From: Candidatus Peregrinibacteria bacterium
GTDB taxonomy: Bacteria > Patescibacteriota > Gracilibacteria > UBA1369
Direction: 5' to 3'
Assembly: GCA_963708185.1 (NCBI GenBank)
Contig: OY970195.1
Coordinates: forward strand, 1,344,001 to 1,408,000
DNA: 64,000 nt
Each line of letters starts with the position of its first letter. Position 1 is the first letter of the stretch. The position numbers and the translations under genes are program-made. The notes beneath the pieces are model-generated. The model made no database searches. It had not been told where the DNA came from and saw only the letters and a program-made list of their open reading frames with translations. This document shows positions 17,261-37,523 of this stretch, in pieces.

Positions 17261-18033
17261 GGAATCCCTTAACAGTTTGGGCACTCAAAAAGCCGTCTTT
17301 GTTTTTTCTTCTCTTGTTTAAGTTATAGTGCAATTTTTCAGGTATGGCAAGTGAGCTGCGGGCCGGGTTTTTGTGGAAACTGATTTATCATCAATTTTTT
17401 CTTCCAGCGGATTGACGCCGGAGGATAAATGGGTGTATCATTTAATGATACGTTCATTGAAAACAAGGCAAAAAAAAGTTTTGGGAAGAGTCGAGAGGTT
17501 AACATTAACCGTTGACCATTCAACCCTTCCTAAAATTTTCCTCCTCAGTAATATGGGTAGGTTTCATAAGAGAACCTGGTGTTAAAATTAAGCTTCGTGC
17601 TTACTCGCTTTTGTGGTTTCGAAAGGGATCATAAAGGACGTTCATCAGGGATTGTTCCTTTTTATGGTTGTTTTCGGGAGGGCCTGAAGGATGGCCGTAA
17701 AAAGAGTTGAATTTGAACTGGTTGGTATTGTGAGGGTGTCAACGATCCTTATTGTCGCAAGGTTTTAAGGAAGAAGACATTCTGTGATTGCAGCAAGAAC
17801 ACCGGTAACGGTTTTCAAGCAAAGATCATGGAGGTATGGATATCTGGGAAGAAAGTCTTTCCATGGGTTCGTATCTTGGCAGTATTGATTATTCGCGGAT
17901 CGCTGTAGCGCAAGTTACGGTCGTCACGGGGAGAAGTTCGATTGCGAAGCTAGGTGCAATGTAATCTTTGTACTGAACTTTGAGGCCAGTCTTTAAACAT
18001 CTTATGGGACAGGGGAAGATTTGGGCAGGGGAC

Positions 18034-18066
18034 AAAAGGGGCCATCCGCAAAGATGGCCCTTTTTT
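18034..18066 (+). terminator. Intrinsic terminator
   Basis: GGGCCATC-CGCAAA-GATGGCCC-TTTTTT with an upstream A-tract. Confidence 0.7.
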
Positions 18067-18123
18067 AAAAAAAATGATATAATTTTACAATAAAAGTGAG
18101 TCATAAAATCTTTGAGGAAATTC

Positions 18124-21749: not shown

Positions 21750-22478
21750 ATGGATAAAATCTTATTAAATATTACAGAGGCGGCTCAATTCATAGGTGTA
21801 TCGGTTGATACGCTTAGAAGGTGGGATAAAGATGGAAAAGTAATAGCTATTCGTGCAGGCGGAAAAGGCACGCATAGATTTTATAGAAAATCCGATTTAG
21901 AGCTTTTCTTAAAAGACCCCTTTAGTCTAGCAAAGTCATGGGCATTTAGCCCAAATCCATTTGAGCCTGAGAAGGAATTTTATTGTCCAAATAGCTCAGT
22001 TTTTCAAGGAAGGCTTACAAAACTAGAAGCAATACTGCAAAAAACGAAAGAACTTGAAACAGATTTTTCCCTTATAACATCCATTACTGGTGAAATTGGC
22101 AATAACTCTTTTGACCACAACCTTGGGAACTGGCCTGACATAAACGGAATATTTTTTGCTTACGATATCAATAAACGAATGGTCGTTTTGGCTGATCGTG
22201 GAATTGGAATATTGCAAAGTCTGAAAAGGGTAAGGGAAAGTTTAACAGACGATAAAGCTGCGCTTGAAGTTGCGTTTACCGAAATAATTACAGGTAGAGC
22301 TCCAGAAGATCGTGGGAATGGACTTAAATATGTAAGAAAAGTTATTGAAAAAAGTTCAATGAGTCTATTTTTTGAAACTGGAGATGCTCAACTTGAACAA
22401 AAACCACATTCGTATGATATCCATTTACAAAAAAGTGGAGACAATTTCCATGGATGCTTAGCTCTTATAAGATTTTAA
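21750..22478 (+). CDS. MerR/excisionase-type HTH fused to a GHKL (anti-sigma-kinase-like) domain
   Basis: AAQFIGVSVDTLRRWD...HRFY; N-box EIGNNSFDH, G1 DRGIG, G2 RGNGL. Confidence 0.8.
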   Translation: MDKILLNITEAAQFIGVSVDTLRRWDKDGKVIAIRAGGKGTHRFYRKSDLELFLKDPFSLAKSWAFSPNPFEPEKEFYCPNSSVFQGRLTKLEAILQKTKELETDFSLITSITGEIGNNSFDHNLGNWPDINGIFFAYDINKRMVVLADRGIGILQSLKRVRESLTDDKAALEVAFTEIITGRAPEDRGNGLKYVRKVIEKSSMSLFFETGDAQLEQKPHSYDIHLQKSGDNFHGCLALIRF

Positions 22479-22490
22479 TCTTACTAAAAT

Positions 22491-22784
22491 ATGAAAATTG
22501 ATCTTAAAAAATTCGGTACGACACTTACTTCAAGGCAACTTGGCAAAGAAGCATTCGCAGCATTTCGACCTATACTCGAAAATATCAATGAAAGTGAAAT
22601 TATTGAAGTAGATTTTGAAGGTGTAAATACATTTTCACCTTCCTGGGGAGCTGAATTTTTGACACCTCTTGAGAACATGTTTCCAGGGAGAGTATTTCTT
22701 GATTATACTAAGAACCCATCAGTAAAAATCACACTTGAATTATTAGAGAATATTATTGGAAAAAAATTCCAAATCAGACAATAA
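22491..22784 (+). CDS. STAS-like (DUF4325-type) protein
   Basis: LTSRQLG, VDFEGVNTFSPSW; 97 aa directly after the GHKL gene. Confidence 0.8.
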   Translation: MKIDLKKFGTTLTSRQLGKEAFAAFRPILENINESEIIEVDFEGVNTFSPSWGAEFLTPLENMFPGRVFLDYTKNPSVKITLELLENIIGKKFQIRQ

Positions 22785-22787
22785 TCT

Positions 22788-23672
22788 ATGGCAACCAATA
22801 TCCCTCAATCATTTCAAAAATTAAAGCAAAACCTTGAAATTACTGATTTGCAAGGTACGACAGTTTCAACACGACAACAAAATGTCCGTAAGGTAATGGA
22901 AGCGGGAATGCAAGTACTTGATTCATTCCTTACAGGTTCATACGCACGCAGTACGATGATTGCTCCTTTAAAAGAAGCAGATGTGGATATTTTTATAGTC
23001 TTGGACCCTAAATATTATTTTCACTACAACAATGGACAAAATGGGGGACAAGGCGGTTTGCTCGATTTAGTAAAAGGTACTTTGCGGAAAACGTATACCA
23101 ATACACCTGATATAAGCAGAAACGGACAAGCTGTAACAATTAGATTTGAAGATTTTGTAGTTGATGTTGTGCCAAGTTTTCATAGGCAAGGTGGTGGTTT
23201 TTTAATACCAAATTCCATAAATCAAAGCTGGATTGAGACAGATCCTAAAAAACATGTTGATATTATGGTTGCCGCAAACCAAACACACAATGGCGACCTT
23301 GTCCCTTTAGTCAAAATGATCAAATGCTGGAACAGAAATAACGGGAAATATTTTAGCTCATTTCATTTGGAAGTATTGGCTCTCCAAATTTTACAAGGCG
23401 TCACTATTTCAAACTTTTGGACTGGAATGCGCTATTATTTTGATAAAGGACGGACAATGATTGCCCAAAGAACACCTGATCCTGCAGGTTACAGCGGTAA
23501 TATTGGAGGCTATATCAATACACAAGAAAAACTACAAGAATCCATTGCGAAATTTCAACTCGCATACAGTAGAGCAATTAAAGCCGAAGAGTTTGGCCTT
23601 CGTGGAAACACAAGAGATAATATTGAAATGTGGATTAAAATATTTGGTAATTACTTCCCTTCCTATGGATAA
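22788..23672 (+). CDS. cGAS/DncV-like nucleotidyltransferase (SMODS/CD-NTase)
   Basis: GSYARST...DVD, DVVP, WIETDP..H, LVKMIKCWN, SFHLE, DPAG. Confidence 0.88.
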   Translation: MATNIPQSFQKLKQNLEITDLQGTTVSTRQQNVRKVMEAGMQVLDSFLTGSYARSTMIAPLKEADVDIFIVLDPKYYFHYNNGQNGGQGGLLDLVKGTLRKTYTNTPDISRNGQAVTIRFEDFVVDVVPSFHRQGGGFLIPNSINQSWIETDPKKHVDIMVAANQTHNGDLVPLVKMIKCWNRNNGKYFSSFHLEVLALQILQGVTISNFWTGMRYYFDKGRTMIAQRTPDPAGYSGNIGGYINTQEKLQESIAKFQLAYSRAIKAEEFGLRGNTRDNIEMWIKIFGNYFPSYG

Positions 23673-24207
23673 TCAAACCCGCACAACTGCCGAGAGGGCT
23701 GTTTCAAAAACCAAAAAAGAAATCATTAAAGAAGCAAAGCGTATTGAAGAAAGCCTGCTACATTCATCTAAGGGACATTTTGCTGCAGCTCATACTTGGA
23801 GCCATTTTCATCTAATTATTGGAATACCAATGGTTTTACTTTCTGGCATTGCGGGGGCATCAGCTCTTGTACAATTTGATCCCTCCCATGTATACGCTGG
23901 TAGCATTTCAATATTAGTTGCAGCATTATCGGGGGTAATGACATTCTTAAATCCAAATGAAAAGACGAGTATTCATCTGGAAGCGGGCAATGATTACGAT
24001 TCATTGATGAACAAAGTTAGAATATTTTCGTCTATTGATTGTTGGCGTGATGAATCTGAACAAGTCTTAACAGAAAAATTGAAATACTTTTCAGAACAAA
24101 AGGACAATTTGAATAAAAAACATCCTCAAATACCTTTTTGGGCTTATTTTAGAGCTAAAAGGGGCATTAAAAATGGAGAAGGGGATTACATGGTGGATAA
24201 AAAATGA
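23665..24207 (+). CDS. SLATT-domain 2-TM effector
   Basis: SSKGHF.AA..W, two TM helices, FLNP...H..AG..Y..L, AKRGI; 8-nt overlap with the CD-NTase. Confidence 0.82.
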   Translation: MDNQTRTTAERAVSKTKKEIIKEAKRIEESLLHSSKGHFAAAHTWSHFHLIIGIPMVLLSGIAGASALVQFDPSHVYAGSISILVAALSGVMTFLNPNEKTSIHLEAGNDYDSLMNKVRIFSSIDCWRDESEQVLTEKLKYFSEQKDNLNKKHPQIPFWAYFRAKRGIKNGEGDYMVDKK

Positions 24208-24276
24208 TCTCCAAATTTCTTTCTAATAAGCCCATTTTACGTGTGATTTTATAAAATTATTATCTAAATTATTTCA

Positions 24277-25056
24277 ATGACCAATGGCGAACTTTCTAAT
24301 CTGATACCCGAATTTCTTTATGATAAACGAGCCTATTCCAGCCAATTTTTTAATAGTACGGGGATTCCTGAAGAATTTCGTCAGTTTGTTAATAAAAAGG
24401 GACTAACTATTGATGACTCAGACTCATCTAGATTTCGTGAAGCATTTTGGCGGCTAGTCTCACGCGATTTAGTGGCTCCTGGTAATGAAAAAGGTGGCGT
24501 GGCTCGACTCCCCTTCGTATCAATTACGGAATATGGCATAAAATGTTTTGAAGAAGGGAAAATTTTACCCTATGATCCTGATCATTTCATAAATTCACTC
24601 GTTGCTGCCATCCCAGGCATAGATGACATAATAATGCTGTATTTTGAGGAATCCGTTAATTGTTTTACAAATATGAGTTATCTAGCAAGCGCTGTCTTAA
24701 CAGGATGCTCCATTGAGAGAATGGTTATCTTTTTAACCGAGGAATTTTTTAAAAAAATTGATCCAAGTCTACAGACAAACTATCAAAAAAATGTATTACA
24801 TTACGAAAAAGTCGGCAAAAGAACAGAAAAGTTCATACACTTTATTGATACGAATCAACTTGATAATAGTTTTCCTATATCAGATCAAGAGAAATTAAGG
24901 GCTCTTCTCCCGTCTATTGTTAACCTCATTCGTATTACTCGTAATGAAGCAGGACATCCTACTGGTCGAGTTCTAGAACGAGATGAGGCGCAAGCCAACC
25001 TACTACTTGCAAAAGAAGGAATAAAATTTTCCTATCATTTTCTTTCAAAATTTTGA
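24277..25056 (+). CDS. Putative wHTH + HEPN-like protein
   Basis: EAFWRLVSRDLV..ITEYG wHTH-like N-terminus; EESVNCF...ASAVLTG and RNEAGH (RxxxxH). Confidence 0.6.
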   Translation: MTNGELSNLIPEFLYDKRAYSSQFFNSTGIPEEFRQFVNKKGLTIDDSDSSRFREAFWRLVSRDLVAPGNEKGGVARLPFVSITEYGIKCFEEGKILPYDPDHFINSLVAAIPGIDDIIMLYFEESVNCFTNMSYLASAVLTGCSIERMVIFLTEEFFKKIDPSLQTNYQKNVLHYEKVGKRTEKFIHFIDTNQLDNSFPISDQEKLRALLPSIVNLIRITRNEAGHPTGRVLERDEAQANLLLAKEGIKFSYHFLSKF

Positions 25057-25067
25057 AGGAAGTGCAA

Positions 25068-25217
25068 CTACAAGTCATTTGGCTTTTTGCTAATTAGGCT
25101 ATAAAAACTGAGAAGCTCTTGCCCCATTTCTTCTGCTTCTGCAAAGGTTAATTCTTTGCCAAACTCCTTTTTATAGATTTCTATGAATTCTTGAACAGAT
25201 TTAGGGTTTAGTTTCAT
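25068..25217 (-). CDS. 49-aa small protein (paralogue of 31704-31856)
   Basis: MKLNPKSVQEFIEIYKKEFGKELTFAEAEEMGQELLSFYSLISKKPNDL; ATGA overlap with the mrr stop; below the ORF-track cutoff. Confidence 0.7.
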   Translation of the reverse strand: MKLNPKSVQEFIEIYKKEFGKELTFAEAEEMGQELLSFYSLISKKPNDL

Positions 25218-26110
25218 TCCTCAGTAAAATAATCCGTATCAATATCTTTGATCTGGTAAGTTTTCTTGGTCGTAACACCCAAATCGTGGTCAATCATCAG
25301 GTCAACAAGCTTTTGCCCGTCAATGATGACAATATTTTTACGGGCAATTTTCAGGAGATTTTCGGCATCCCTGGGAAAACGTGAGGTCGTGATAAACACG
25401 CCTTTGCTGACGCCGTTTAGTTCCAACGTGCCGACAAAATCACGAACCATGGAAGCAGACACTGGATTGCCCTCCTTGAAGCGTTTTGCCTGAAATAAGA
25501 TCGTATCTAAGCCTAATTTGTCCTGAGTTATTAAACCGTCAACTCCGCCATCCCCTGATCTTCCAGTAACTCGTCCCTTCCCGTATCCCATGGCAGTCAG
25601 CAAATCCAAAACAACCTGCTCAAAAAATGCTGGCGAATTGGCTTTGAGTCTTTCAAGCAAGTTTGAGGCTAGGGCAGCCCTTAATCGCAGATAGCCCTCT
25701 TCCAGCAGTTCATCAGGTGTTTCGGTTTCATTGATAGTTTTTGGTTCTTCTTTTTCATCTTGTTTTGATACATTTCTAACTTCCAGAAAATCAGGAAATT
25801 GTTCCAAATATTTAGCGTTGATAGCTTTAATTCCTGTTTTCAAAACACGCATGCCATCATCCGTTATTTGTACCATCCCTCTGTTTGGAGAAATTATTAG
25901 CCCAGCTTGTTTCAGATAAGTCCTAGCCCAAGACACTCTATCTTTCGCAATTAAACCATTACCACTTGGGTACATTGCTGTCTTTTCCGCTTCGGATAGC
26001 TTCAAATCGCTTAACAGCTCCTCGGAGATCTCCTTCATGCTTTTTTGCTTTCCATCCTCCAGTTTTTTGAGCAGAGGAAACATAAATTCATGGTATTTCG
26101 GAATTGGCAT
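25214..26110 (-). CDS. mrr: Mrr-family type IV restriction endonuclease
   Basis: Mrr_N (RVSWARTYLKQAG) plus catalytic DGGVDG...QAKR...GVFITTS. Confidence 0.92.
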   Translation of the reverse strand: MPIPKYHEFMFPLLKKLEDGKQKSMKEISEELLSDLKLSEAEKTAMYPSGNGLIAKDRVSWARTYLKQAGLIISPNRGMVQITDDGMRVLKTGIKAINAKYLEQFPDFLEVRNVSKQDEKEEPKTINETETPDELLEEGYLRLRAALASNLLERLKANSPAFFEQVVLDLLTAMGYGKGRVTGRSGDGGVDGLITQDKLGLDTILFQAKRFKEGNPVSASMVRDFVGTLELNGVSKGVFITTSRFPRDAENLLKIARKNIVIIDGQKLVDLMIDHDLGVTTKKTYQIKDIDTDYFTEE

Positions 26111-26119
26111 GGGGAGATT

Positions 26120-26329
26120 TTAAAAAATTAAATGATGAAATCGTGTCATTAAAAAGCCAAAAACTGGGACAATGACTAAAAGAAAAGTACAACCCATCAT
26201 GCGGCCGAATTTCCTTTGCCTGCCCTGCTTGGTGAGTGGAACACCAATAGCGCGTGATAGTTTGCCCTTTGCGGCTGAAATGCCGAGCGCACGTTTCCAA
26301 GAGAAAGAAAATCCAAACTTTCTGGCCAT
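26120..26329 (-). CDS. Small basic protein with C-terminal TM
   Basis: GFSFSWKRALGIS..K...GVPLTKQGRQRKFG; sits in line between the R-M gene and mrr. Confidence 0.7.
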   Translation of the reverse strand: MARKFGFSFSWKRALGISAAKGKLSRAIGVPLTKQGRQRKFGRMMGCTFLLVIVPVFGFLMTRFHHLIF

Positions 26330-26346
26330 ATAAATTTACAAAGAAA

Positions 26347-29300
26347 TTAAGACTTCAAAACGATCTCTCTCTCTTCGGGAGTGAGGTCATAGAGGTCAAA
26401 AACCATGTTGTCAATAGTCTGGTCTTCTTGTTCGATTTTAGTTTTGAGATTCAAAATTTCTTGTTTGTTTTTTTCAAAGAAATCAAGAAGCTCACCTTTC
26501 TTTTTAAGGTCCAATTTTTTGATACCGAGGGCCTTGATGAAGCTGTCAAAATCGAGTTCATAGAATTTTTCAAGCTTTGTGCTTACTTTTTGGAGCTGGA
26601 ATTCTTGTTGAAGGAGTTTGAGGGATTTTTGGAGTTTTTCATAAAAGTTTTCCGATAACGATAGCATGATGTTGGCCTTCTCTATAAATGGATTTTGAGA
26701 TCCACGTGGTATTATTTTTATAGAAAATTGATCTAAATGTTTTCGTTTTATATAAGGGAAAACTTCAGCATTGGTGATGAAAAATTTATTGTAAATATAT
26801 GTAAACAGACTGGAATTTAACAGTGACAATATGTAGTTTTCATCGTATTTCTCAGATTTTAAAACGATATTATAAAGCGACTGGATGGTAAAATATTGAT
26901 TAGTATCAAGTGTTGCTATCAATTTTCGCCCTGTTTTTCTTAAAAGAATTTTCTTTTTTGCTAAAAAAACTTCTTCATTGTCATTGCTGTGAATTTTTGA
27001 TTTATCGAAATTGATGTACATCCCAGCATCAAAATAATGCCATTTTTCAATATCTTTTCCACTTAATACCTTTTTACTATTTGAAAAAATTGGAGAAGTG
27101 GCAAGCATCGTATCTTGGTCACCGGTCATTATGCCGATGTAATTTAATGCTATTTCCCCTAATTGAATCGATCCAATCTTCATTTTTTGCAATATTTTGT
27201 CTTCGTTTTCCTCTGCTGGAAAATCAAAGATAAAATTTTCATTCGTATAATATTTACCTTGCTGCATCTTCTTGCCTTTTTCACTGTCACCTTCAAATGA
27301 AATCAGTCCATTTTTGATTCCTGTTTCTTTCTTAAAAATGGAAATAACGCTATCTACAACAACATTTTCAAATACTTTTGAATGAGGCTTAAAGAAAAAT
27401 TCAATTTGGCAATTATCTAGAATAAATTTTCTGATTTTGAAAGAATAAAAATTTTTCATAAAATTCCATGGAGTAATGAGTCCAATTTTTCCTCCATTTT
27501 TTGTGAGCTTTATTGATTTCTCAATGAATAAAGTATAAAGGTCAATTTTGTCGTAAGCTGTTTCAAATTTAGAAAGAAAAGTTTCTTTAAGTTTTTTGTT
27601 TATCTTTTCGTACTTGCTTGTTACGTACGGCGGATTCCCAACAATCACATCAAATCCTCCATTTTTAATGATTTCCGAAAATTCTGATTCCCATTTAAAC
27701 TCACGCTTACCTGCAATAGTGGGGTCATCAATTAAACTATTCCCGCATTTAATATTGTTTTTGAGGCTAACAAGTTTTTCTCCTTTTCTGGCTGTTTTGA
27801 GCCACAATGAAAGCTTTGTGATTTCAACGCTTTCAGGATTCAAATCAACACCGTAAATATTGTTTTGGAGGAGTGACTTGATGTAACTTTCAACATTGAA
27901 TAAGTCACCCTTCCCCCCTGAAATGTCGGTTAAAATAGCCCCAATTCTTTTATTTTCAGCCAAAAAATAATCATAAACTTTAACAAGGAATGCGCCGCTT
28001 CCGCAAGCGGGGTCAAGAACCTTGATGTTTCTTAATTTTTCTCTGTATTCTTCGTAAGCCGTTCTCATGCGCTTATAGTAATTTTCATCTGTTAAATCGG
28101 TATTAACTCCGTGTTTGGTTAAAATGAACTGTTCCTGTTCTTCCAGATACCTCCCAAGTGAGTTTTTAACGATGTAATCGACGATATAATCGGGAGTATA
28201 GTAAATTCCATCCTTCTTACGTTTGGACGTTTTTAAATGGGCTTCAGGCTCTTCGGTTGTTTTTTCAGCAATACTTTTGAGTTCTTCAAGGTCGCTAATG
28301 GATTGTTCAAATATATGACCAAGGATGTTGACGCTCAGGTCTTCGCCAAAATCATACTTTCCAAGCTCAACAAATTTTTTGCAGATTTCATCATCAATTT
28401 TCAGGCCATTTAATGCTTCATCTTCTTTGAAAAGTTCGCCGTTGTAACCGTCGGGAATGCCAAGTTTTTCACTTCCGCGATCAATGGCCGTAAAAAAGCT
28501 TTTCATAATATCCCAAATTGGAATGGTCAAACCAAGCTTTTCCGTATGGAAAACAACCTCCTGCAATTTGTCGTCTGGCAAAAGGTCCAAGTCTTCACAA
28601 AAGCAAACAAAGACAAGGCGATCAATGATCTTTTGAGCTTTTTCAACAGCTAGAACATAGAAGCTTTCTCGGAGCCGCGCTTCCTGGTTGTTTTTCAGAA
28701 TGTTCTTGATGAGCTCTTGTCTTAAATCTCGATATTTTCGGTAAAATTCCTTGGTGATTTGTTCCTGCTCAATACGAATGTCGGAAAGAAGCTTGAGCGT
28801 GTTCGTTTCGCCACTTTTGGCAATGAAATTTTCAGCATTGAGGAGGTAGTAAAATTTGCGAAACTGGAAATAATTGTCTTTTGGGTCAACAAGGCTTTCA
28901 AGCGTGAAACTTTCAAAATCGAGCTGGTTATCTTTGAGGAGGCGGATTTCAAAAAAGTTTGTGGCAATCACAAAGTCACATTCCTTGTATTGTGGCTTAT
29001 ATTTAAAGGCCTGTTGAACTGGACTCAAACTTCCCTCGCGCTTTTGAGATTTGTCGAGAGAAGTGTTTACGTCCTTAATTTCTACAACGGCAATGACGCG
29101 CCGTTTTTCTTCGCTAAAATAGCCAAGAATAGCGTCAGGCTTTTGTCCGCCTGCCTCAACATTTCCTTTTGGGTCGATAGTATAGATTTCATTGGGAAAC
29201 CCCTTGTATCCAAGGATTTCAATGAAGAAACTTTGATTGAAGGCTTGTTCGCACTGGCTTTCAGATTTTTTATGAAGTGACTTGTTTTCATAGGCTTCAT

Positions 29301-29400
29301 GCCACGCTTTGACTTTGGCTAATTTTAAATCAAAATCGGGAATCTCATATCCTTCGAGTTTGGCTTTGATAGCCTTATTTTTAAAAAGTCCTGAAGTCAA
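26347..29400 (-). CDS. Type IIG restriction-modification enzyme (endonuclease + N6-MTase + TaqI-like TRD)
   Basis: PDAILG...VVEIK nuclease, GIYYTP, VLDPACGSGAF, GNPPY; probable TTG start at 29400 (ORF track 29439). Confidence 0.92.
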   Translation of the reverse strand: MTSGLFKNKAIKAKLEGYEIPDFDLKLAKVKAWHEAYENKSLHKKSESQCEQAFNQSFFIEILGYKGFPNEIYTIDPKGNVEAGGQKPDAILGYFSEEKRRVIAVVEIKDVNTSLDKSQKREGSLSPVQQAFKYKPQYKECDFVIATNFFEIRLLKDNQLDFESFTLESLVDPKDNYFQFRKFYYLLNAENFIAKSGETNTLKLLSDIRIEQEQITKEFYRKYRDLRQELIKNILKNNQEARLRESFYVLAVEKAQKIIDRLVFVCFCEDLDLLPDDKLQEVVFHTEKLGLTIPIWDIMKSFFTAIDRGSEKLGIPDGYNGELFKEDEALNGLKIDDEICKKFVELGKYDFGEDLSVNILGHIFEQSISDLEELKSIAEKTTEEPEAHLKTSKRKKDGIYYTPDYIVDYIVKNSLGRYLEEQEQFILTKHGVNTDLTDENYYKRMRTAYEEYREKLRNIKVLDPACGSGAFLVKVYDYFLAENKRIGAILTDISGGKGDLFNVESYIKSLLQNNIYGVDLNPESVEITKLSLWLKTARKGEKLVSLKNNIKCGNSLIDDPTIAGKREFKWESEFSEIIKNGGFDVIVGNPPYVTSKYEKINKKLKETFLSKFETAYDKIDLYTLFIEKSIKLTKNGGKIGLITPWNFMKNFYSFKIRKFILDNCQIEFFFKPHSKVFENVVVDSVISIFKKETGIKNGLISFEGDSEKGKKMQQGKYYTNENFIFDFPAEENEDKILQKMKIGSIQLGEIALNYIGIMTGDQDTMLATSPIFSNSKKVLSGKDIEKWHYFDAGMYINFDKSKIHSNDNEEVFLAKKKILLRKTGRKLIATLDTNQYFTIQSLYNIVLKSEKYDENYILSLLNSSLFTYIYNKFFITNAEVFPYIKRKHLDQFSIKIIPRGSQNPFIEKANIMLSLSENFYEKLQKSLKLLQQEFQLQKVSTKLEKFYELDFDSFIKALGIKKLDLKKKGELLDFFEKNKQEILNLKTKIEQEDQTIDNMVFDLYDLTPEEREIVLKS

Positions 29401-29408
29401 AATAATAC

Positions 29409-29548
29409 AAAAAGGGCCACCTAGACGTAGCACCAACAATTAGCAAGCCGTAAGGCTCTCCAAATGTTGTACGCTAGGTAACCCCAGCTTGTTCATTTGG
29501 AGAGCAAAAAAACGAGTTTTTGCCTTATAACTTACGAATTGTTGGTGC
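29409..29548 (-). ncRNA. Putative structured 5' leader RNA of the R-M operon
   Basis: Two perfect 12-bp inverted repeats plus a 15-bp loop-to-3'-flank pairing with G-U pairs on the minus strand. Confidence 0.55.
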
Positions 29549-29681
29549 GATTGAAATATACGTTAAACGAGAGTTCTATTCAAGAAACAATCCTGAGTAA
29601 TTTTCTTTCGGAAAAGTTGTTGCTATAAGCCTAAATAGGGCTAAAATTCGGGAGAAAAGGTTTAAAGTAAATTTAGATGTA

Positions 29682-31346
29682 ATGAAAGATGTAAACCCTA
29701 AACAATACAGAGTATCTGTTCGTCGAAAGCTCATTGATGCAGCAATTCAGAACAGAGAAAAACCCCACACCGTTACTACCTCCACGGGAGAAGAGGTGAT
29801 TTTGGGTTTAATTGGGGCTACATACGCAATTGATGGGGACTCTTTTTATGCAAATCCGCGATATGAAGATTTCTATTTTCGAGAAATACAAAATGACAAA
29901 ACCTTATGGAATTTTTATAATCGGTGGATTCTTTTAGGAATCAATCATGATTTTTCCGCAGAGGAAAAGCTAAAATTTGTACTTTATTGCAGCCAAAAAT
30001 TAAAAGAACACATTCCTCGCAAACAGCAAATGGTGATTTTATGGCTTTTCTTTGATGTTTTTCATGATCTTATTAGTGCTTTAATCCAGCGCGCTGATCT
30101 CTATTATGAAAAATATATTCCCGAATATCTCCAAAGAATAAACTGTATTTCTGCCGTTTTACGTAAAGTATTGGTTGCTTTTCCTGTTGAAGACTTCAAC
30201 AGTATTTTGCAGAAAATACAGACATTCGCTACCGATCTCAAAAAAAATCTTAAAGTCTTGGGTGAGTTGAAAGATGAATATGACTATAAAGTCGGATCAA
30301 TAGGGGTCATACTTCAAGAATCCTTTAAGCGATTTTATTTTGAAGAAATTTTTCAGAATAACATTTTTTCTATATCTCCAATTTTAGGTGAAAGGGATGA
30401 TTTTAAAATCGCGTTTGAAAAAAAATGGCAAGACCTAAAGCTATATCAAAATAGCAGCTATGGATTTTGGGTGGTCCCATTTATAAATCCAGCTGATTAT
30501 TTTCGATATTTAGAATTCACTTTGGTAGCTGTCGAAAACGTTGAAAAACAGGCTGTTGCTTATCAGGTTTTGGATTTTTTGACCTATGATGTTTTTTCTA
30601 AAAATCCTTATAACAAGCCATATTATGAATATATAATCAACCGACTGATAATTTTTATCGAAAAAAGGTACGTCAAACCGTTTCTTAAAAAAGTTGCAAA
30701 AAATTTAAAACCCCAAAGACAAGTTTCTGACCTTGAAAAAGATGAAGAATTTTTAAAGCCATTGGCGAAAATTGTTAATGATTACGATCCATTTTTTCTC
30801 TTATTTGAGGCAAAATCTTCAAAGCGCTTGAAAGGTTTTGATGATGGATTGTTTGCGCCTATAGGAAAAAACGGAAAGTTATTTTTACTCGGGAATTTGA
30901 GTGAGGGACGTGGTTTTGCTTTTATAGCTTATATTAAGGCAAAAATACGCACTTTGGTGAAAGAATTTATCGGTCTTAAAGAATGGAAAAATAAAAGAAA
31001 ATTGTCATTAGATCAAAGCATATCGAGTGACCAGGATGATCTAACATTAGAAGATATTTTGGCTTTTGAGAAAGATTTAGTTTCTGAAGATCAAGAAGAA
31101 GATTCAAATGACTATGCGTATCCACCTTGTGATACTCAAGATAATGAGTGGTATATTGATAAATTTGCAGAAATAATTGAAGTAGCCCCAAAAACTTTGA
31201 GACGGTGGGATAAAGAAGACTCATTCACTCCTCATAGGAGAACAAGAGGCAAGAAAGGCATTCGCTGCTATATTGAAAGTCAGATTCCTGAAGCTCGAAG
31301 AATCAAAGCTCTAAAAGAGCGAAGACAAAAACACCAAGTCATTTAA
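29682..31346 (+). CDS. Hypothetical protein with sigma70-like region 2/3 motifs and C-terminal MerR-type HTH
   Basis: FIAYIKAKIR, LSLDQSISSDQDDLTLEDIL, FAEIIEVAPKTLRRWD...IRCY. Confidence 0.55.
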   Translation: MKDVNPKQYRVSVRRKLIDAAIQNREKPHTVTTSTGEEVILGLIGATYAIDGDSFYANPRYEDFYFREIQNDKTLWNFYNRWILLGINHDFSAEEKLKFVLYCSQKLKEHIPRKQQMVILWLFFDVFHDLISALIQRADLYYEKYIPEYLQRINCISAVLRKVLVAFPVEDFNSILQKIQTFATDLKKNLKVLGELKDEYDYKVGSIGVILQESFKRFYFEEIFQNNIFSISPILGERDDFKIAFEKKWQDLKLYQNSSYGFWVVPFINPADYFRYLEFTLVAVENVEKQAVAYQVLDFLTYDVFSKNPYNKPYYEYIINRLIIFIEKRYVKPFLKKVAKNLKPQRQVSDLEKDEEFLKPLAKIVNDYDPFFLLFEAKSSKRLKGFDDGLFAPIGKNGKLFLLGNLSEGRGFAFIAYIKAKIRTLVKEFIGLKEWKNKRKLSLDQSISSDQDDLTLEDILAFEKDLVSEDQEEDSNDYAYPPCDTQDNEWYIDKFAEIIEVAPKTLRRWDKEDSFTPHRRTRGKKGIRCYIESQIPEARRIKALKERRQKHQVI

Positions 31347-31413
31347 ATGGCTTAAATCCATCATGGCTTTGTCCATATTTTCCAGATAGTGAACAACACT
31401 ATCTGTATTTTAA

Positions 31414-31707
31414 ATGAACGAAGTAACGACCACTCAAACTCAAGTCACTGAGGTCCAAATAATACCTGTGAAGCCCACTAATGGCCTCATAGCTTTTGCG
31501 AGCTGCGTTATTGATGGCAAGCTTCTTTTAAGTTCGATTGGTGTTTTTACGAAGTTGGATGGTTCTGGGTATCGTATTACGTTCCCGACAAAAAAGGTCG
31601 GGCGGGAAGGTTTTAACGTGAACGTTTTTAACCCTATCAACAAAGAGGCCTGTGAAGCCATCACGCGGGCGATTTTGGCGAAGGTCGGTAATCTATTTGA
31701 AATATGA
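31414..31707 (+). CDS. SpoVG-family nucleic-acid-binding protein
   Basis: VTEVQI...GLIAFASCVIDG...ITFPTKK...FNPINKE. Confidence 0.78.
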   Translation: MNEVTTTQTQVTEVQIIPVKPTNGLIAFASCVIDGKLLLSSIGVFTKLDGSGYRITFPTKKVGREGFNVNVFNPINKEACEAITRAILAKVGNLFEI

Positions 31708-31856
31708 AAATCCCCAAAGAAGCAGTTAGCCAGTTTCAAGAGCTTTACCGTGTGAAATACGGTAAGGAGCTGACTTTTGAGGAGGCTGAGATTGAGGCGC
31801 GCGAATTACTGAATTTATACGCATTGTCACAAAATAAAAACATTTTTTATGAATAG
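31704..31856 (+). CDS. 50-aa small protein (paralogue of 25068-25217)
   Basis: MKIPKEAVSQFQELYRVKYGKELTFEEAEIEARELLNLYALSQNKNIFYE; overlaps both neighbours. Confidence 0.7.
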   Translation: MKIPKEAVSQFQELYRVKYGKELTFEEAEIEARELLNLYALSQNKNIFYE

Positions 31857-32397
31857 AGAGCTTGAAATCCAGCTTATGAAAGATTCTGAAATTGTCGTGC
31901 TTTTAAAGTCCCTTATTTTGGAGAAGGCGAGCAGGCATGAGGCGGTTTTAAAGGTTGTTCAAGGCTGTCCTGATAGCAAAATTGATCAAATTTTAAGTGG
32001 TCCAGCGACCGAAGCGGACATACGGCTTATTTTTGAGCGATTTGAGGCTGATTTGGAGATTAAACGGCTTGAAATTGATCTGGCGAACATGTGCTATGCC
32101 TTGAACAGCAATAAAACGGACCATAAAAATATAACCGACTGGGACCGTGCTTATGAACATGCTACATGCGGCGTTAGTATTGATCGGGTAGTGAGCTTTT
32201 TGTTAGGTATTGATCGTTTCAATCGCAATATTAAGTGTCCTTTCCATGATGACGGTAAAGCTTCATTGAAAGTTTACGTGAAAAACAACCGTTTTGTGTG
32301 TTTTGGATGTGGTATTCGTGGCTCTCCAATTGATTTTGTTATGTATCACAAAAACTGCTCCTTCCGCGAAGCAGTTCTGTTTCTTTCTAATCTGTAA
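31849..32397 (+). CDS. CHC2 zinc-finger (primase Zn-binding domain) protein
   Basis: CPFHDDGKASL...FVCFGCG...IDFVM...SFREAV. Confidence 0.85.
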   Translation: MNRELEIQLMKDSEIVVLLKSLILEKASRHEAVLKVVQGCPDSKIDQILSGPATEADIRLIFERFEADLEIKRLEIDLANMCYALNSNKTDHKNITDWDRAYEHATCGVSIDRVVSFLLGIDRFNRNIKCPFHDDGKASLKVYVKNNRFVCFGCGIRGSPIDFVMYHKNCSFREAVLFLSNL

Positions 32398-32410
32398 TTC
32401 CATTTTAGTT

Positions 32411-33808
32411 ATGACCAATAAATATGTCAAAAATACTATTCAGAACTTAAAAGAAGAGATGGCAGAAAATGCCATTTCTTCAGGTCCGCCCGATTTATCC
32501 GATTCTACAAAGGAGGGGAAACAAGACCCTATACCCAGCGGACTCTCTGTCCCTCCTCAAGTAACAGGGACACAAACTCCGCCTGGTATAGAGAGTGTTC
32601 TTGAAGCTGTCAGACAAACGGGAGAAAAACATGATTATGTTATCAAGGCTATTCTTGCTGTTTTCGCGTCAACTTTTCTTGTACGCAAAGACCCGATTTG
32701 GCTTTTGATTGTTGGTAATCCTTCCTCAAATAAAACAACTCTTGTCGATTTGATTTCTGGGCATGTTGATGTTTATCGACTTGATACGCTCACTGCTAAT
32801 CCTTTCAGTTCTGGGCAGAGGGAGAAAGAGAAACCGAAAGATCTTTTGCCATTATTGGATGGAAAGTGTTTTGTAATCAAAGAATATGCGACTATCTTTG
32901 GTAGAAGCGATGAAATGGTTAAGCAGCTCATTAGCGACCTTGTCGCTATTTATGACGGTGAATACGCAAAGCATTCTCCGACACGCGGCACGATTCGTTA
33001 TAAATCGTTTTTTTCTCATGTAGGATGCGTGACACCCATGGCTTTAAATTCACGGCAAGTCTATATGAGTGCGGTCGGGGCACGTTTTCTTTTTTTAAGG
33101 ATTGATTCACTTTCTGATGAAGAAAGAGACGATTCGATGAATGAAATTTTCTCTAATTCAAGAAAAAGTAACGCCGAAATTGTAGATGTTGTTTCCGCAT
33201 ATTGTCGCGTTATAAAGGATGTTATTCAGCAGGGCAACATTCCACAGATACCTTCCGAAGTGTTCAGCAAGTTAAAAGTGTTTGCCAGATTGATGGCGCG
33301 AGCGAGGGGAATCGTTATTACAAATCCAGTGAGTTATGAAGGGAATGACGGTAAAAAGCGGATTCATTATGAGGTTGATGATATTCAGATTGAAGAGCCT
33401 TTCAGGGCCTTAAAACAGCTCAAGAAATTCGCTGAATGTTTGGCTATTGTGAATGGTTCAAATGTTGTTGGCGAGGAGGAAATATCAATCGTGCAGCGGG
33501 TTGTTCTTTCTTCTATGCCAGTTCGAAGAGCCGATATATTGCGGGTTTTTGAAAAAGGAATTTTGTTTACCGTGAAAGAAGCGGCGGAAAAGCTTGATAA
33601 GAACAACAAGACTGTCAGGCGCAATTTGGATGAACTGGTGTCGTTGGGTGTCCTTGATACTGTGAAGGAAAGCGATACTCAGGCAAAAGCATATTTTATG
33701 AAGGAAGAGTATGCGGATGTTTTGGGTTTTAGTATTCAGCAAACAGAAACGGTCCAAGCCAATTCGCCTGAAAATTCAGCGGAAACTAAAGAGAAATTGC
33801 CTTTTTAA
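32411..33808 (+). CDS. AAA+/MCM-like ATPase (putative helicase) with C-terminal wHTH
   Basis: WLLIVGNPSSNKTT (variant Walker A), IYDG, GARFL arginine finger, AEKLDKNNKTVRRNLDELV. Confidence 0.65.
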   Translation: MTNKYVKNTIQNLKEEMAENAISSGPPDLSDSTKEGKQDPIPSGLSVPPQVTGTQTPPGIESVLEAVRQTGEKHDYVIKAILAVFASTFLVRKDPIWLLIVGNPSSNKTTLVDLISGHVDVYRLDTLTANPFSSGQREKEKPKDLLPLLDGKCFVIKEYATIFGRSDEMVKQLISDLVAIYDGEYAKHSPTRGTIRYKSFFSHVGCVTPMALNSRQVYMSAVGARFLFLRIDSLSDEERDDSMNEIFSNSRKSNAEIVDVVSAYCRVIKDVIQQGNIPQIPSEVFSKLKVFARLMARARGIVITNPVSYEGNDGKKRIHYEVDDIQIEEPFRALKQLKKFAECLAIVNGSNVVGEEEISIVQRVVLSSMPVRRADILRVFEKGILFTVKEAAEKLDKNNKTVRRNLDELVSLGVLDTVKESDTQAKAYFMKEEYADVLGFSIQQTETVQANSPENSAETKEKLPF

Positions 33809-33855
33809 TTCGTGGGCGCTTAACACAACCTATTATTTTTTATTTTTTTCACTTT

Positions 33856-34158
33856 ATGACACCATCAACCATCAAGGAAGTTTGCACACTTTGTAATGCC
33901 CTTTCTCATAAACTAGCCGAATGCCTGCAAACATGTACGCGTTATGCGGTAGAAGCAAATTGTGTGCCTTCTTTCTTTTACTGTGAAGCTTTGACTTTAC
34001 ATGCATCAGCCGAAATAAAAGGTGATGATGGAGCATTTGTTGATCTATGTAGGCTTCAACCTTTTTTGGCTTTAGCGGCTAAACATGGGGCATACATCAC
34101 TCCAGATTCAATCACGAAAAATGGAAACACTATCACCGTTGAGGTCACCATATGTTAA
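33856..34158 (+). CDS. Hypothetical protein
   Basis: 100-aa ORF co-oriented within the element. Confidence 0.45.
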   Translation: MTPSTIKEVCTLCNALSHKLAECLQTCTRYAVEANCVPSFFYCEALTLHASAEIKGDDGAFVDLCRLQPFLALAAKHGAYITPDSITKNGNTITVEVTIC

Positions 34159-34203
34159 TACCGTCTGTAACAATTAACTTTATATCTTTTACGCTTAAAA
34201 ACT

Positions 34204-34377
34204 ATGTCCTATAATCCAAACCACTATCAGTCCAAGAACGTTTATCTTCCAAAGGAGCTGTGCGCTTTTGCTGAGAAGAAAGCCAAAAGTCAGTTCATGA
34301 ATTTCAGTGTCTATATCAGGTCACTTATTGTTGAAGACCTGAAGAAAGAAACCCTGAATGCAAGGCCAATTACGTAA
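34204..34377 (+). CDS. Ribbon-helix-helix (CopG-like) protein, 57 aa
   Basis: SKNVYLPKELCAFAEKKAKSQFMNFSVYIRSLIVEDL; missed by the ORF track. Confidence 0.65.
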   Translation: MSYNPNHYQSKNVYLPKELCAFAEKKAKSQFMNFSVYIRSLIVEDLKKETLNARPIT

Positions 34378-34492
34378 TAATATCTACTGAATGAAACCTG
34401 CATGGAAGCTCTTATTCAGTTGGATTTAGGGCTTCGGTTCAATCTCTAATGATTTCGGCAAAAAATTTGAATATTTTTTAATTCTAACCTTC

Positions 34493-35014
34493 ATGACAAC
34501 ATCAAAAAAACAGCTTCTTGCGAATCAACAAAACGCCAAACTTGGTGGCGTAAAGACGGAAACTGGCAAGGAAGTCAGCAAGTTAAACTCTACGAAGCAT
34601 GGCTTATTGAGCCAGGAAGTTTTGTTAAAAGATGAAAACAAACCTGAGCTTGCCACTTTACGTCAACAATTAAATGACTATTTCCAGCCCGAAACAGGCA
34701 TGGAGCAAATCTTGGTGGATCGAATCATTGCCAATGTTTGGAGACTTAAAAGGGTGCTTAAAATTGAAACCGAAATGATTGAGAACGATTGTAAGCCTGG
34801 ATTTATGGAAAATGAGAAAAAGGGCTTGGGCACTGCTTTAAGTTACGATTTTGCGAATAATGATACTTACGGCAAACTTATTCGCTATGAGACCAGTATT
34901 GAGAGAGGACTCTATCGTGCGCTCCATGAATTACAAAGGATGCAGGCGCAACGGAAAGGTCAACAAGTACCTCTACCCGTTGTTATAGACGTGGAAATGA
35001 ATAAGGAAGAATAA
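34493..35014 (+). CDS. Conserved hypothetical protein of mobile elements
   Basis: KQLLANQQNA..GVKTETGK..S..N..KHGL and RYETSIERGLYRALHEL pattern. Confidence 0.7.
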   Translation: MTTSKKQLLANQQNAKLGGVKTETGKEVSKLNSTKHGLLSQEVLLKDENKPELATLRQQLNDYFQPETGMEQILVDRIIANVWRLKRVLKIETEMIENDCKPGFMENEKKGLGTALSYDFANNDTYGKLIRYETSIERGLYRALHELQRMQAQRKGQQVPLPVVIDVEMNKEE

Positions 35015-35042
35015 ATGGGTTCGTTTCGTAAAATTATTTTTT

Positions 35043-35657
35043 ATGGGTAGACACTATTATAGTAAAAAGGATACGGTCGAAGATTGTCTTATTGTGGGTG
35101 TCTTTTGGTTGAAGAGAAATGGGTATCTTGATGGTTACAAGCATGGCGGAATCACTTGGACCTCTGGCTCTGGAAGTCAAAGTACCATTGGGATCACGGT
35201 TTCCACCTGCATAGATTATAAATTCCTTCGGTTCAATTACACATTGACCCAAAATGAGAAGAAAGAGAATTACAATTATGTTGTAAGGATTGTTACTTCT
35301 AGGTGTAATTTCAAAGGAAGGAGATTTTGGTTTCTTTGTCCTCTTTTGAAAGGTGATCGTCCATGTGAAAGGCGTGTGGCGAAGCTCTATTTGCCACCTG
35401 GAGGAAAGTATTTTGGGTGTAGACAATGCTATGATTTGAGCTATAACACGAGAAATAAATATGATGGACGGTTTGCTGAATTCGGCAAGGTTCTTGATTA
35501 CGAAGCAAAGATGGAGAAGTTGAAAGATGTGGTCAAAAGAAAATATTACAACGGCAGGATGACAAAAAAATATAAAAGGTATCTGCAATGTGTTCAGGAG
35601 TTCAATCACGCCGCTCCGCTTCTTGCTGAAAGGATGAATAGATTATTATCTAACTAA
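35043..35657 (+). CDS. Hypothetical Cys-rich (Zn-finger) protein
   Basis: CNFKGRRFWFLCP...CERRVAKLY...FGCRQCYDLSY. Confidence 0.7.
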   Translation: MGRHYYSKKDTVEDCLIVGVFWLKRNGYLDGYKHGGITWTSGSGSQSTIGITVSTCIDYKFLRFNYTLTQNEKKENYNYVVRIVTSRCNFKGRRFWFLCPLLKGDRPCERRVAKLYLPPGGKYFGCRQCYDLSYNTRNKYDGRFAEFGKVLDYEAKMEKLKDVVKRKYYNGRMTKKYKRYLQCVQEFNHAAPLLAERMNRLLSN

Positions 35658-35673
35658 GTGCTAATATATGCTC

Positions 35674-35796
35674 GCAGTCCAAAATTCAGTTAATTTGTTG
35701 AGGGAGTATTTGTTTTGTTGCCTTTAGTGGGGCAACTGTGCCAATAAAGAATCCCTCAAGGAAACTGAATTGGACTGCCACGGTTGCTCCTCTTTG
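35674..35796 (+). ncRNA. Putative structured 5' leader RNA of the recombinase
   Basis: Nested stems plus a 12-bp loop-to-3'-flank pairing with G-U pairs on the plus strand. Confidence 0.55.
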
Positions 35797-35817
35797 AGGT
35801 CATTTACTTTATCTTTT

Positions 35818-37482
35818 ATGGAAAATATTAAATTTGCAATTTACGCTCGTAAATCCTCAACAGGTGAGGACCGTCAGGTACTTTCTATAGAATCTCAATT
35901 GGATGAGATGAAGGATTTGGCGCAAAAACTTGGGATTAGAAATTATCAGGTGTTTACCGACTCTCAAACTGCTCACAAGCCATATTTGAGGCCTGAATTT
36001 ATGAAAATGATTGCAGCGATTGATAGTGGAGAAATCCAGGGAGTGCTTTGCTGGAAAGCGGACCGTTTAGCACGGAATCCCCTTGAAGGGGGGAATATCA
36101 CCTATCTTTTGCAGAACAGCAAATTGAAGGTCATCCAAACCCCTTACAGTCGATATTTACCAACAGATAACACTCTGCCTTTAACGATTGAGCTTGGAAT
36201 GGCGAATCAATACAGTCTTGATCTTTCTAAGAATGTGAAAAGAGGTAATAAAACTAAAGTTGCCAATGGCGGTTATACAGGCGTTGCTCCTCATGGTTAT
36301 TTGAACGATCTTATTAACCATACCATTCTTCCAGATCCTGACCGCTTTGATCTGGTCCGAAAAATGTGGGACCTCTATTTGAAAGGAACGTATTCTTTAA
36401 ATCAAATATGCAAAATTGCAAATGAAGAGTGGGGGTTCCTAACATATCGAAGAAAACAAACGGGTGGTGCAAAATTGTGTATTTCGAGCCTTTACACAAT
36501 TTTCACAAATCGTTTTTATTATGGATGGATTCAATCTGGTGAAAATGCAAACTATGGCATTCATAAGCCAATGATTACCATAGCTGAGTTTGAGAAAGTT
36601 CAAGAACTATTGAGAAGACAGGGGAGGAAAGGGGAAACAAGTTACGAGTTTTCATTTACGGGTTGTATTAAATGCGGAGAGTGCAGTGCTTCAATAACAG
36701 CTGAGGAGAAAGTGAAATATGCTTGTCCTGGTTGTAGAAAACAGAATTCGGCTAAAAATCCGCATCGTTGCGGACGTTGTGGTTACAGTATTGCCAAAGA
36801 AGACGTAGCACATGGTCATTGGTATAAATATTATCGCTGCACAAAAAAGAAAGGTGCATGTTCACAGAAATGCTTTACTGCTGATGCTCTGGAAGGGCAA
36901 TTTGTTGATACTCTCTCCAAGATTGAAATAGACCCCGATTTTGAGCGTTGGGCTTTGCAGTGGTATAAATTCCTCAATCAAAACTCCTTTGATGAGAAAC
37001 AGGGGCAGAACGAATTATTTTACAGCAATTATCAAAAAGCTGAGGAGAAAATAAAGCGGTTAGTTGATATGCGGGCTGATGGTGAGATTGATAAAGATCG
37101 TTTTATTGCTTCCAAAGCTGAAGCGGAAACTGACCTTGCCCATTGGAAAAGCAAATTGAGCGAGGCTGAGAAGACAAGGAATCAATCATTAGCGGAGATT
37201 GAAGAGGCGCTTGGATTTATCCAAGGTATCCAGAAACGCTTTAGGGAAGGCTCCGTCCGTGACAAGAAATATATTTTTATGAAGGTTGGCTCGAACTTTC
37301 TTCTAAAGGACCGAATACTTACTTTAGATACCCAAAAAGCCTATTTAGCCTTTCGAGAGCTTCAAGATGACGTTGATACTCGGATCGAACCTAAAGATTT
37401 GCCTTCCATAAAAGAAAATAACCCCCTTTTGTATGAGAGGGTTTTAACATGGCAGGGCCAGAAGGAATCGAACCCTCGTTAA
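35818..37482 (+). CDS. Large serine recombinase (integrase)
   Basis: YARKSS catalytic Ser, DRLARN, recombinase domain, Zn ribbon (CGEC...YYRC), coiled coil; 3' end overlaps the tRNA. Confidence 0.93.
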   Translation: MENIKFAIYARKSSTGEDRQVLSIESQLDEMKDLAQKLGIRNYQVFTDSQTAHKPYLRPEFMKMIAAIDSGEIQGVLCWKADRLARNPLEGGNITYLLQNSKLKVIQTPYSRYLPTDNTLPLTIELGMANQYSLDLSKNVKRGNKTKVANGGYTGVAPHGYLNDLINHTILPDPDRFDLVRKMWDLYLKGTYSLNQICKIANEEWGFLTYRRKQTGGAKLCISSLYTIFTNRFYYGWIQSGENANYGIHKPMITIAEFEKVQELLRRQGRKGETSYEFSFTGCIKCGECSASITAEEKVKYACPGCRKQNSAKNPHRCGRCGYSIAKEDVAHGHWYKYYRCTKKKGACSQKCFTADALEGQFVDTLSKIEIDPDFERWALQWYKFLNQNSFDEKQGQNELFYSNYQKAEEKIKRLVDMRADGEIDKDRFIASKAEAETDLAHWKSKLSEAEKTRNQSLAEIEEALGFIQGIQKRFREGSVRDKKYIFMKVGSNFLLKDRILTLDTQKAYLAFRELQDDVDTRIEPKDLPSIKENNPLLYERVLTWQGQKESNPR

Positions 37483-37523
37483 CGGTTTTGGAGACCGCTG
37501 TATTGCCACTATACGATGGCCCT
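37450..37523 (-). tRNA. tRNA-Trp (CCA)
   Basis: AGGGCCA TCGTATAGTGGCAATACA GCGGT CTCCAAA ACCGT TAAC GAGGGTTCGATTCCTTC TGGCCCT GCCA; anticodon CCA, encoded 3' CCA. Confidence 0.96.

Follow-up and report, generated by a model that had tools for sequence, protein, structure and literature searches.

A structured leader upstream of a large serine recombinase gene represents a widespread RNA family of candidate-phyla-radiation bacteria with a putative two-state fold

The recombinase locus and its genomic setting

The window (the whole stretch of 64,000 nucleotides that was analysed) is part of a 1.44-Mb single-contig genome and contains an island of low G+C content at approximately 22000-37500 (33-42% vs about 50% in the surrounding DNA). 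The right end of the island is a tRNA-Trp gene on the minus strand (37450-37523), and its final gene, at 35818-37482 on the plus strand, encodes a large serine recombinase with Pfam matches to Resolvase (4.2e-17), Recombinase (6.8e-9) and Zn_ribbon_recom (4.8e-6). Besides the recombinase, the island cargo includes an MmeI-like restriction-modification gene, a gene with a C-terminal MerR helix-turn-helix, SpoVG and a primase zinc ribbon. The recombinase open reading frame (ORF) overlaps the 3' part of the opposite-strand tRNA-Trp gene by 33 nt. Peptide tails derived from tRNA sequence (...ESNPR, ...DSNQ) also end homologues of the recombinase, which suggests that this lineage is located at tRNA-gene junctions.

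The leader described here occupies the 160-nt gap between the gene at 35043-35657 and the recombinase. Together with its neighbor at 34493-35014, the former gene constitutes a conserved module immediately upstream of the leader; relatives of 34493-35014 and 35043-35657 were present in 11 and 19 of the fetched loci, respectively. Neither gene matched a Pfam or NCBIfam family, the only PHROG match was a single weak one of unknown function, and the matches in the Atlas were restricted to 'hypothetical' clusters, some of them viral. Homologues of SpoVG, which the sequence-only reading had named as a speculative ligand, were found near five recombinase loci, of which only one (L140) has a match to the covariance model R1 described below. 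A second recombinase lineage, 38% identical, was seen at G000:C1:722003-722887 (L025) and in L008, L011, L026 and L027. The conserved sequence upstream of this lineage is a different one and includes GCCCAAAAGCGATAAC, and its frequent position at contig ends suggests a repeated mobile element.

Parts and predicted folds of the leader

All parts of the leader lie on the plus strand. A -10-like hexamer, TAATAT (35662-35667), which the sequence-only reading of this DNA had pointed out, ends 6 nt before the outer helix P1. In the minimum free energy (MFE) structure, the 5' strand of P1 (a, 35674-35691), presumably the first transcribed bases, pairs with the 3' strand (a', 35763-35778), leaving an AA bulge; the 3' strand is placed by covariation as well. 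Inside P1, helix P2 joins TTGAGGGA (35698-35705) to TCCCTCAA (35752-35759), P3a joins 35709-35714 to 35743-35748, and a local hairpin is formed by segment x, GTTGCCTT (35717-35724), with GGGGCAAC (35729-35736). In this rod-like fold, state A, x serves as the local partner of the loop arm c, GGGGCAACTGTG (35729-35740). The alternative partner of c is the tail arm c', CACGGTTGCTCC (35779-35790), which starts without a linker after P1; the two arms match over 12 bp, including two G.U pairs, and form helix B, the pairing of state B. As read from the sequence, state B allows the CCAAT that follows c (35741-35745) to pair with ATTGG (35770-35774). A U-rich tail, TCTTTGAGG (35791-35799), lies 3' of c', and the recombinase ATG at 35818 is 27 nt past the tail arm. 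Every pairing named in the sequence-only reading was thus recovered at its place within 35674-35790.

The MFE of the leader is -54.4 kcal/mol, compared with -36.9 +/- 4.0 kcal/mol for 200 dinucleotide shuffles (z -4.40), and none of the 200 was as good. The opposite strand folds less stably in absolute terms (-45.2 kcal/mol), with a similar z.

A second leader with the same plan lies on the minus strand at 29408-29560 (leader 1), before the MmeI-like type IIG restriction-modification gene (Eco57I, 6.9e-42; MmeI_Mtase, 5.4e-17). Its fold of -63.6 kcal/mol (z -7.08) was likewise matched by 0 of 200 shuffles, so that the suggested shuffle test was passed by both leaders. The order of parts is the same: a -10 hexamer TATATT, read from sequence at 29560-29555, P1 formed by 29548-29537 with 29441-29430, a loop arm at 29485-29470 and a tail arm at 29429-29414, followed by TTTTTG.

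A widespread family of structured leaders

Of 61 related genomes, counting that of the window itself, 21 contain homologues of the recombinase. Their upstream regions exhibit, both by eye and in folds, a common plan of an outer P1, inner stems, an apical G-rich c, a complementary c' directly after P1, and a short U-run. A scan with a recombinase alignment, using one genome per species, yielded 80 loci, whose record titles name Magasanik-, Falkow-, Uhr-, Parcu-, Sacchari- and other candidate-phyla-radiation bacteria together with some other phyla. A covariance model (R1), from which helix B is absent, was built from 28 sequences of related loci. With E-values up to 0.01, R1 matched 45 places in 100 sources, including 27 of the 80 recombinase loci; among 151 genomes of the same order, 29 had matches, at 32 places in total, and so did 10 of 150 genomes sampled elsewhere in the phylum. 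Genomes with the element carry one or two copies, and more than 60 copies of the leader are known in total. A descriptor scan that required adjacent arms, a P1 of 8 bp or more and a helix B of 10 bp or more matched 33 of the 80 loci. It was set aside as evidence of specificity, several hits, such as those in L038 and L046 (the first hits), L095, L099 and L107, being plainly due to chance. Among viral contigs, the P1/c' junction consensus pattern was seen in one contig only, and the recombinase protein scan returned one distant locus.

The family does not correspond to a known RNA. A scan of the whole window with Rfam 15 at gathering thresholds returned only tRNA, and the best match of either leader in permissive Rfam 15 scans reached 18.7 bits (E 0.33) against a gathering score of 40; c4, int-alpA and other motifs of mobile elements were among the families compared. 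The sequence-only reading had proposed both this comparison and the search for homologues in CPR genomes that proved productive here. No description of such a leader was found in the parts of the full-text literature that were accessible, PMC5737381 included, although supplements could still list such motifs. On these sequence comparisons, the recombinase leader belongs to a widespread family of structured leaders of candidate-phyla-radiation (Patescibacteria) bacteria for which no earlier description was found. The initial proposal of an undescribed cis-regulatory RNA class therefore stands as far as a structured family absent from Rfam is concerned, whereas its cis-regulatory role is something that we infer from position.

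The relationship between the two leaders of the window is closer in architecture than in sequence. In the window's own genome, R1 identified only 35669-35802, leader 1 scoring just 6.2 bits. A second model, R2, contains the helix-B structure and 52 sequences, with L142 included and leader 1 and L145 left out; in a search of the window with this leave-out model, with E up to 10 and filters off, leader 1 was not recovered. Together with the 6.2 bits of R1, this means that the membership of leader 1 is not shown by a naive model. Leader 1 has two homologues, L145 (genome G026) and L142 (G024), with compensatory changes. The G026 homologue is 78% identical, carries compensatory changes in P1, P2 and B, and precedes an Mrr-type restriction endonuclease gene, while the L142 homologue precedes a small ORF and a recombinase. 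R1 matches L142 weakly (E 5.9e-4) and, reciprocally, model R3, built from the three sequences of leader 1 and its two homologues only, weakly matches one R1 member (G061, E 1.1e-3). R3 also matches six more copies that represent a third subtype; the genes that follow them encode either proteins of 350-370 residues that faintly match NucS or SLH-domain proteins. The two SLH-domain (cell-surface) cases are L153 and L155, and the class is accordingly not confined to DNA-handling genes. The claim that the two leaders of the window share one topology was thus borne out for architecture and short motifs, whereas no single model joined the two leaders and sequence homology is represented by the two weak reciprocal matches. 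We conclude that assignment of both leaders to one class is well supported by architecture and weakly by homology.

Covariation supports two helices on the gene-sense strand

Covariation was assessed on a 45-sequence alignment (A5) and on a structure-blind MAFFT alignment of 52 sequences (A7). Double-sided changes were found in 7 of the 9 pairs of P1 on A5 (8 of 9 on A7), and double changes in 10 of the 14 pairs of helix B on A5 (11 of 14 on A7), where 92-97% of the cells of helix B are paired on A5. As helix B lies outside R1, the alignment was not fitted to it. Paired cells amounted to 91% on A5, vs 34-51% with the partners slid, and to 93% on A7; for all five measures on A5, none of 500 shuffles reached the observed value. 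Since related genomes are not independent, the underlying evolutionary events are fewer than these counts suggest. P1 and B are each backed by compensatory changes, in keeping with the mutually exclusive pairings first noticed in the single sequence. In P3a, to which the alignment was fitted, 79% of cells are paired on A5 and all five pairs show double changes. By inspection, a helix is seen at the position of P2 in the nine listed seed loci and in leader 1, with a different sequence each time.

G.U pairs outnumber A.C combinations by 64 to 7 in helix B and by 5 to 0 in P1, and one G.U position is conserved (GU in 32 and GC in 11 of the 45 sequences). The excess of G.U over A.C in helix B indicates that the gene-sense strand is the structured one.

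The CCA/UGG columns of the small inner helix are 97.7% pairable across the family and nearly invariant; being compatible with pairing yet almost without variation, this helix is unproven. Nearly invariant segments have two potential partners each: UGG in a' is complementary to two CCA segments, and GGG in c to two CCC segments. Such invariance is what is expected from competing pairings. Conserved unpaired stretches (a U-rich bulge, CUGCCAGCAAA and the GGGGCGG loop) could alternatively form a pocket whose ligand, a small molecule or second messenger, would choose between states A and B. This riboswitch interpretation would account for two covarying, exclusive folds with conserved unpaired stretches and agrees with the lack of an Rfam match. 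It is nonetheless an improbable one, because the downstream genes (recombinase, methylase, restriction enzymes and SLH-domain proteins) share no metabolic theme and few unpaired bases are common to the three subtypes.

Promoter spacing and downstream genes

In all 45 copies, a -10-like hexamer ends 3-10 nt before P1, the distance being exactly 6 nt in 36 of them; 28 of the 45 hexamers are a perfect TATAAT. The placement noted in the single sequence is therefore a property of the family, and leader 1, its relatives and the third subtype are spaced likewise. The fixed 6-nt distance suggests that the RNA starts at the first paired base of P1, and the transcription start is placed there in what follows, on the strength of this spacing.

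At all 29 loci that were inspected, the motif is followed within about 75 nt by the start of an ORF on the same strand. This ORF is a serine recombinase in 23 loci, a small ORF followed by a recombinase in two (L140 and L142), an N6/N4 DNA methylase in two (L135 and L138) and a small unnamed ORF in two (L134 and L136). The end of helix B lies 8 to 46 nt from the start codon in 26 of 27 loci, the corresponding value for L090 being -2. A Shine-Dalgarno sequence is missing from most start codons. The variable distance between B and the start codon, combined with the lack of Shine-Dalgarno sequences at most start codons, implies that translational occlusion is not a general explanation.

These gene associations bear on three further interpretations. 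The element might be a trans-acting short RNA of about 125-135 nt, extending from P1 to the U-run, with expression of the gene resulting from read-through. A promoter of its own and an end that resembles a terminator would fit this, and state B, with a free 5' region and a terminal hairpin, resembles the usual layout of bacterial small RNAs. Nevertheless, we regard this as decidedly unlikely: an ORF follows directly on the same strand in 29 of 29 loci, a conserved seed or target was not found, and A is the favored fold.

Alternatively, the element could act at the DNA level, as a single-strand hairpin serving as a recombinase or replication site (att-like, primase site or single-strand promoter). 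G.T wobbles are tolerated in single-stranded DNA too, and the island encodes a primase-like zinc ribbon. However, the leader also precedes methylase, Mrr and SLH genes, the junction of the island is the tRNA, 1.7 kb away, and the -10 box is located outside the hairpin, where its spacing suits an RNA start; moreover, the longest match between leader and junction is 8 nt, against a mean of 7.8 nt for shuffled sequences. A DNA-level function thus appears very improbable. A single-strand DNA promoter of the Frpo type in particular was rejected, as it requires -35 and -10 boxes inside the stem, and the conserved -10 box of the leader is outside it, 6 nt upstream.

Least plausible, and in our view barely credible, is a guide or bridge-like RNA that programs the serine recombinase. 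The idea draws on the position of the element directly 5' of the recombinase gene, like that of the IS110 bridge RNAs, but the partner is a large serine recombinase and not an IS110 enzyme, complementarity to the att side is not above chance, and the same RNA precedes genes other than recombinases. The 8-nt match, the longest of the leader to the tRNA-side junction, is no better than in shuffles, and the guide-RNA idea was dropped.

A putative two-state switch

The arrangement of the parts suggests how the leader might work. In 44 of the 45 rows of A5, the linker between P1 and c' is 0 nt, c itself lies inside P1, and P1 encloses a further 20-38 bp. On geometric grounds, a full rod and a full helix B should therefore be unable to coexist. 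State A is favored by a median of 7.8 kcal/mol and is the MFE structure of 41 of the 52 sequences; in 9 of the 52, the two states are within 2 kcal/mol. The base of helix B is G+C-rich (GGGGCGG with CCGUCCC) and is followed by a U-run: 74% of the first 4 nt after B are U, and the first 8 nt contain 4.25 U on average, vs 30% T overall, with at least four U in 40 of the 52 sequences. The two best terminator candidates of the host end alike (...CCC CUUUUG and ...GCCGA CUUUUA). A simple consensus terminator scan called nothing at the leader; the two arms of helix B are separated by 38-60 nt, and the U-run is partly engaged in pairing with an A-run (B2). Inspection of the aligned sequences by eye revealed neither a conserved leader peptide nor a convincing antisense promoter.

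We therefore consider, with about even confidence, that the leader is a two-state, attenuator-like switch of the recombinase mRNA, in which the rod would be the ON state and the terminator-like helix B the OFF state. In this model, the element would be the 5' leader of the recombinase mRNA, transcribed from the first base of P1. State A would be a 5'-terminal rod of about 30-45 bp, composed of P1, P2, P3a and the apical hairpin, which would bury the 5' end and keep c in the apical part. In state B, c would pair with c' over 11-22 bp, closed by the small CCA/UGG inner helix and followed by the short U-run, an arrangement that resembles a long intrinsic terminator. Because A would form first and is usually more stable, read-through and expression would be the default, and B, disfavored both kinetically and thermodynamically, would need a putative trigger. 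We infer both this trigger and the terminator role of B from the predicted folds. A trans factor (protein, RNA or small ligand) that blocks or opens the rod might allow B to form, whereupon transcription would stop before the gene or the mRNA would be silenced otherwise. The proteins encoded at 34493-35014 and 35043-35657 are candidates for the putative trans factor.

The same two folds could operate after transcription. The 5' rod may shield the mRNA from 5'-end-dependent decay, with refolding setting its lifetime or translation, such that B would free the 5' end or mask the ribosome landing zone on an mRNA without a Shine-Dalgarno sequence. A 5' end inside a helix is a hallmark of 5' stabilizer hairpins, and the -10 spacing would place it within P1 in 45 of 45 copies. 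In state B, the 5' strand of P1 is on average 68% unpaired, and the shortage of Shine-Dalgarno sequences fits as well. Nevertheless, B stops 8-46 nt before the start codon (26 of 27 loci), often too far away to mask it, and in most members the more stable fold is A, which leaves a decay or translation switch possible though unlikely.

Comparison with known regulatory RNAs

The attenuator-like reading places the leader near known attenuators with competing hairpins, such as the pT181 and pIP501 rep leaders, riboswitch expression platforms and trp-type leaders. Like these, it is promoter-proximal and its exclusive helices share a strand, and its helix B, a terminator-like stem with a G+C-rich base and a short U-run, lies just before the gene. 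Exclusive helices that share sequence and are each under selection characterize such systems; P1 and B both covary here, and their exclusivity follows from the predicted geometry. In contrast to the known attenuators, the apical loop of the 5' rod contains the 5' arm of the terminator-like helix that competes with it, the loop of that helix contains the 3' strand of the rod, and the arms are 38-60 nt apart; the leader is also unrelated in sequence to the families of Rfam 15.

The 5'-terminal stem-loops of the ompA and aprE leaders are stabilizers of mRNA. They resemble the leader in that the helix begins at or within one base of the presumed 5' end, but the rod of the leader is much longer (about 30-45 bp) and is coupled to a covarying alternative helix. 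The rep activators of IncI and IncB plasmids form loop-to-downstream pseudoknots with a complement of 4-8 nt. There, too, bases of a hairpin loop match a complementary stretch farther downstream, whereas the complement in the leader measures 11-22 nt and is not adjacent to a ribosome-binding site. A 0-nt linker after a rod of at least 25 bp makes a true pseudoknot sterically implausible. An H-type pseudoknot was discarded by the same geometric argument, as a 0-nt linker with 20-38 bp inside P1 does not provide the loop lengths needed for coexisting stems.

IS110 bridge RNAs (seekRNAs) are likewise structured RNAs of mobile elements, where they are encoded on the 5' side of the recombinase gene. 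They differ in the recombinase family, and the leader has no guide-like target match and precedes other types of genes too. An IS110-type bridge RNA, which calls for an IS110 (DEDD/Tnp) partner and for loops complementary to target and donor DNA, was rejected, given a partner with Resolvase, Recombinase and Zn_ribbon_recom domains and a junction match at chance level. The c4-type and other phage- or integrase-associated Rfam motifs are comparable as structured RNAs of mobile elements, but the leaders score nowhere near their thresholds. We regard the leader as one of a known kind, the structured leader or attenuator, with an unusual, interleaved layout and an unusual set of genes in a poorly studied phylum.

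Possible biological role

A structured leader that precedes recombinase, methylase, restriction and surface-protein genes offers a first handle on the control of risky genes by these minimal cells and their mobile elements. We speculate, as a rather unlikely scenario, that in candidate-phyla-radiation bacteria this family serves mobile and defence genes as an 'arrival switch'. Upon entry of the element into a naive cell, the first integrase, methylase and restriction transcripts would pass; an accumulating factor of the element or the host would then flip the leader to the terminator-like fold. Such a factor might be a small ligand or a conserved unnamed protein encoded just upstream. If true, the arrival switch would represent a new class of sensing RNA whose parts are interleaved in an unusual way. 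RNA regulation in candidate-phyla-radiation bacteria is almost unexplored, and genome engineers prize the large serine recombinases. With a length of about 125 nt, the leader is a clean, testable two-state RNA, and its covariance model can serve as a marker for integrative elements and recombinase genes in metagenomes.

Several minor features were seen around the family. R2 weakly matches 18026-18109 on the minus strand of the window, a candidate for a canonical hairpin terminator ending in CUUUUG, because its 3' half resembles c' and the tail. In L004, L005 and L007, a C-run with the palindrome ATTACTTAAGTAAT (or a close variant) is located about 60-80 nt upstream of P1, just past the stop codon of the upstream gene, and may be an operator or a terminator. 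Finally, two loci only, L009 and L010, contain a second c-like copy (GGCGGTT and GGGCGGT, respectively) just upstream of the -10 box, which can pair with c' in read-through transcripts.
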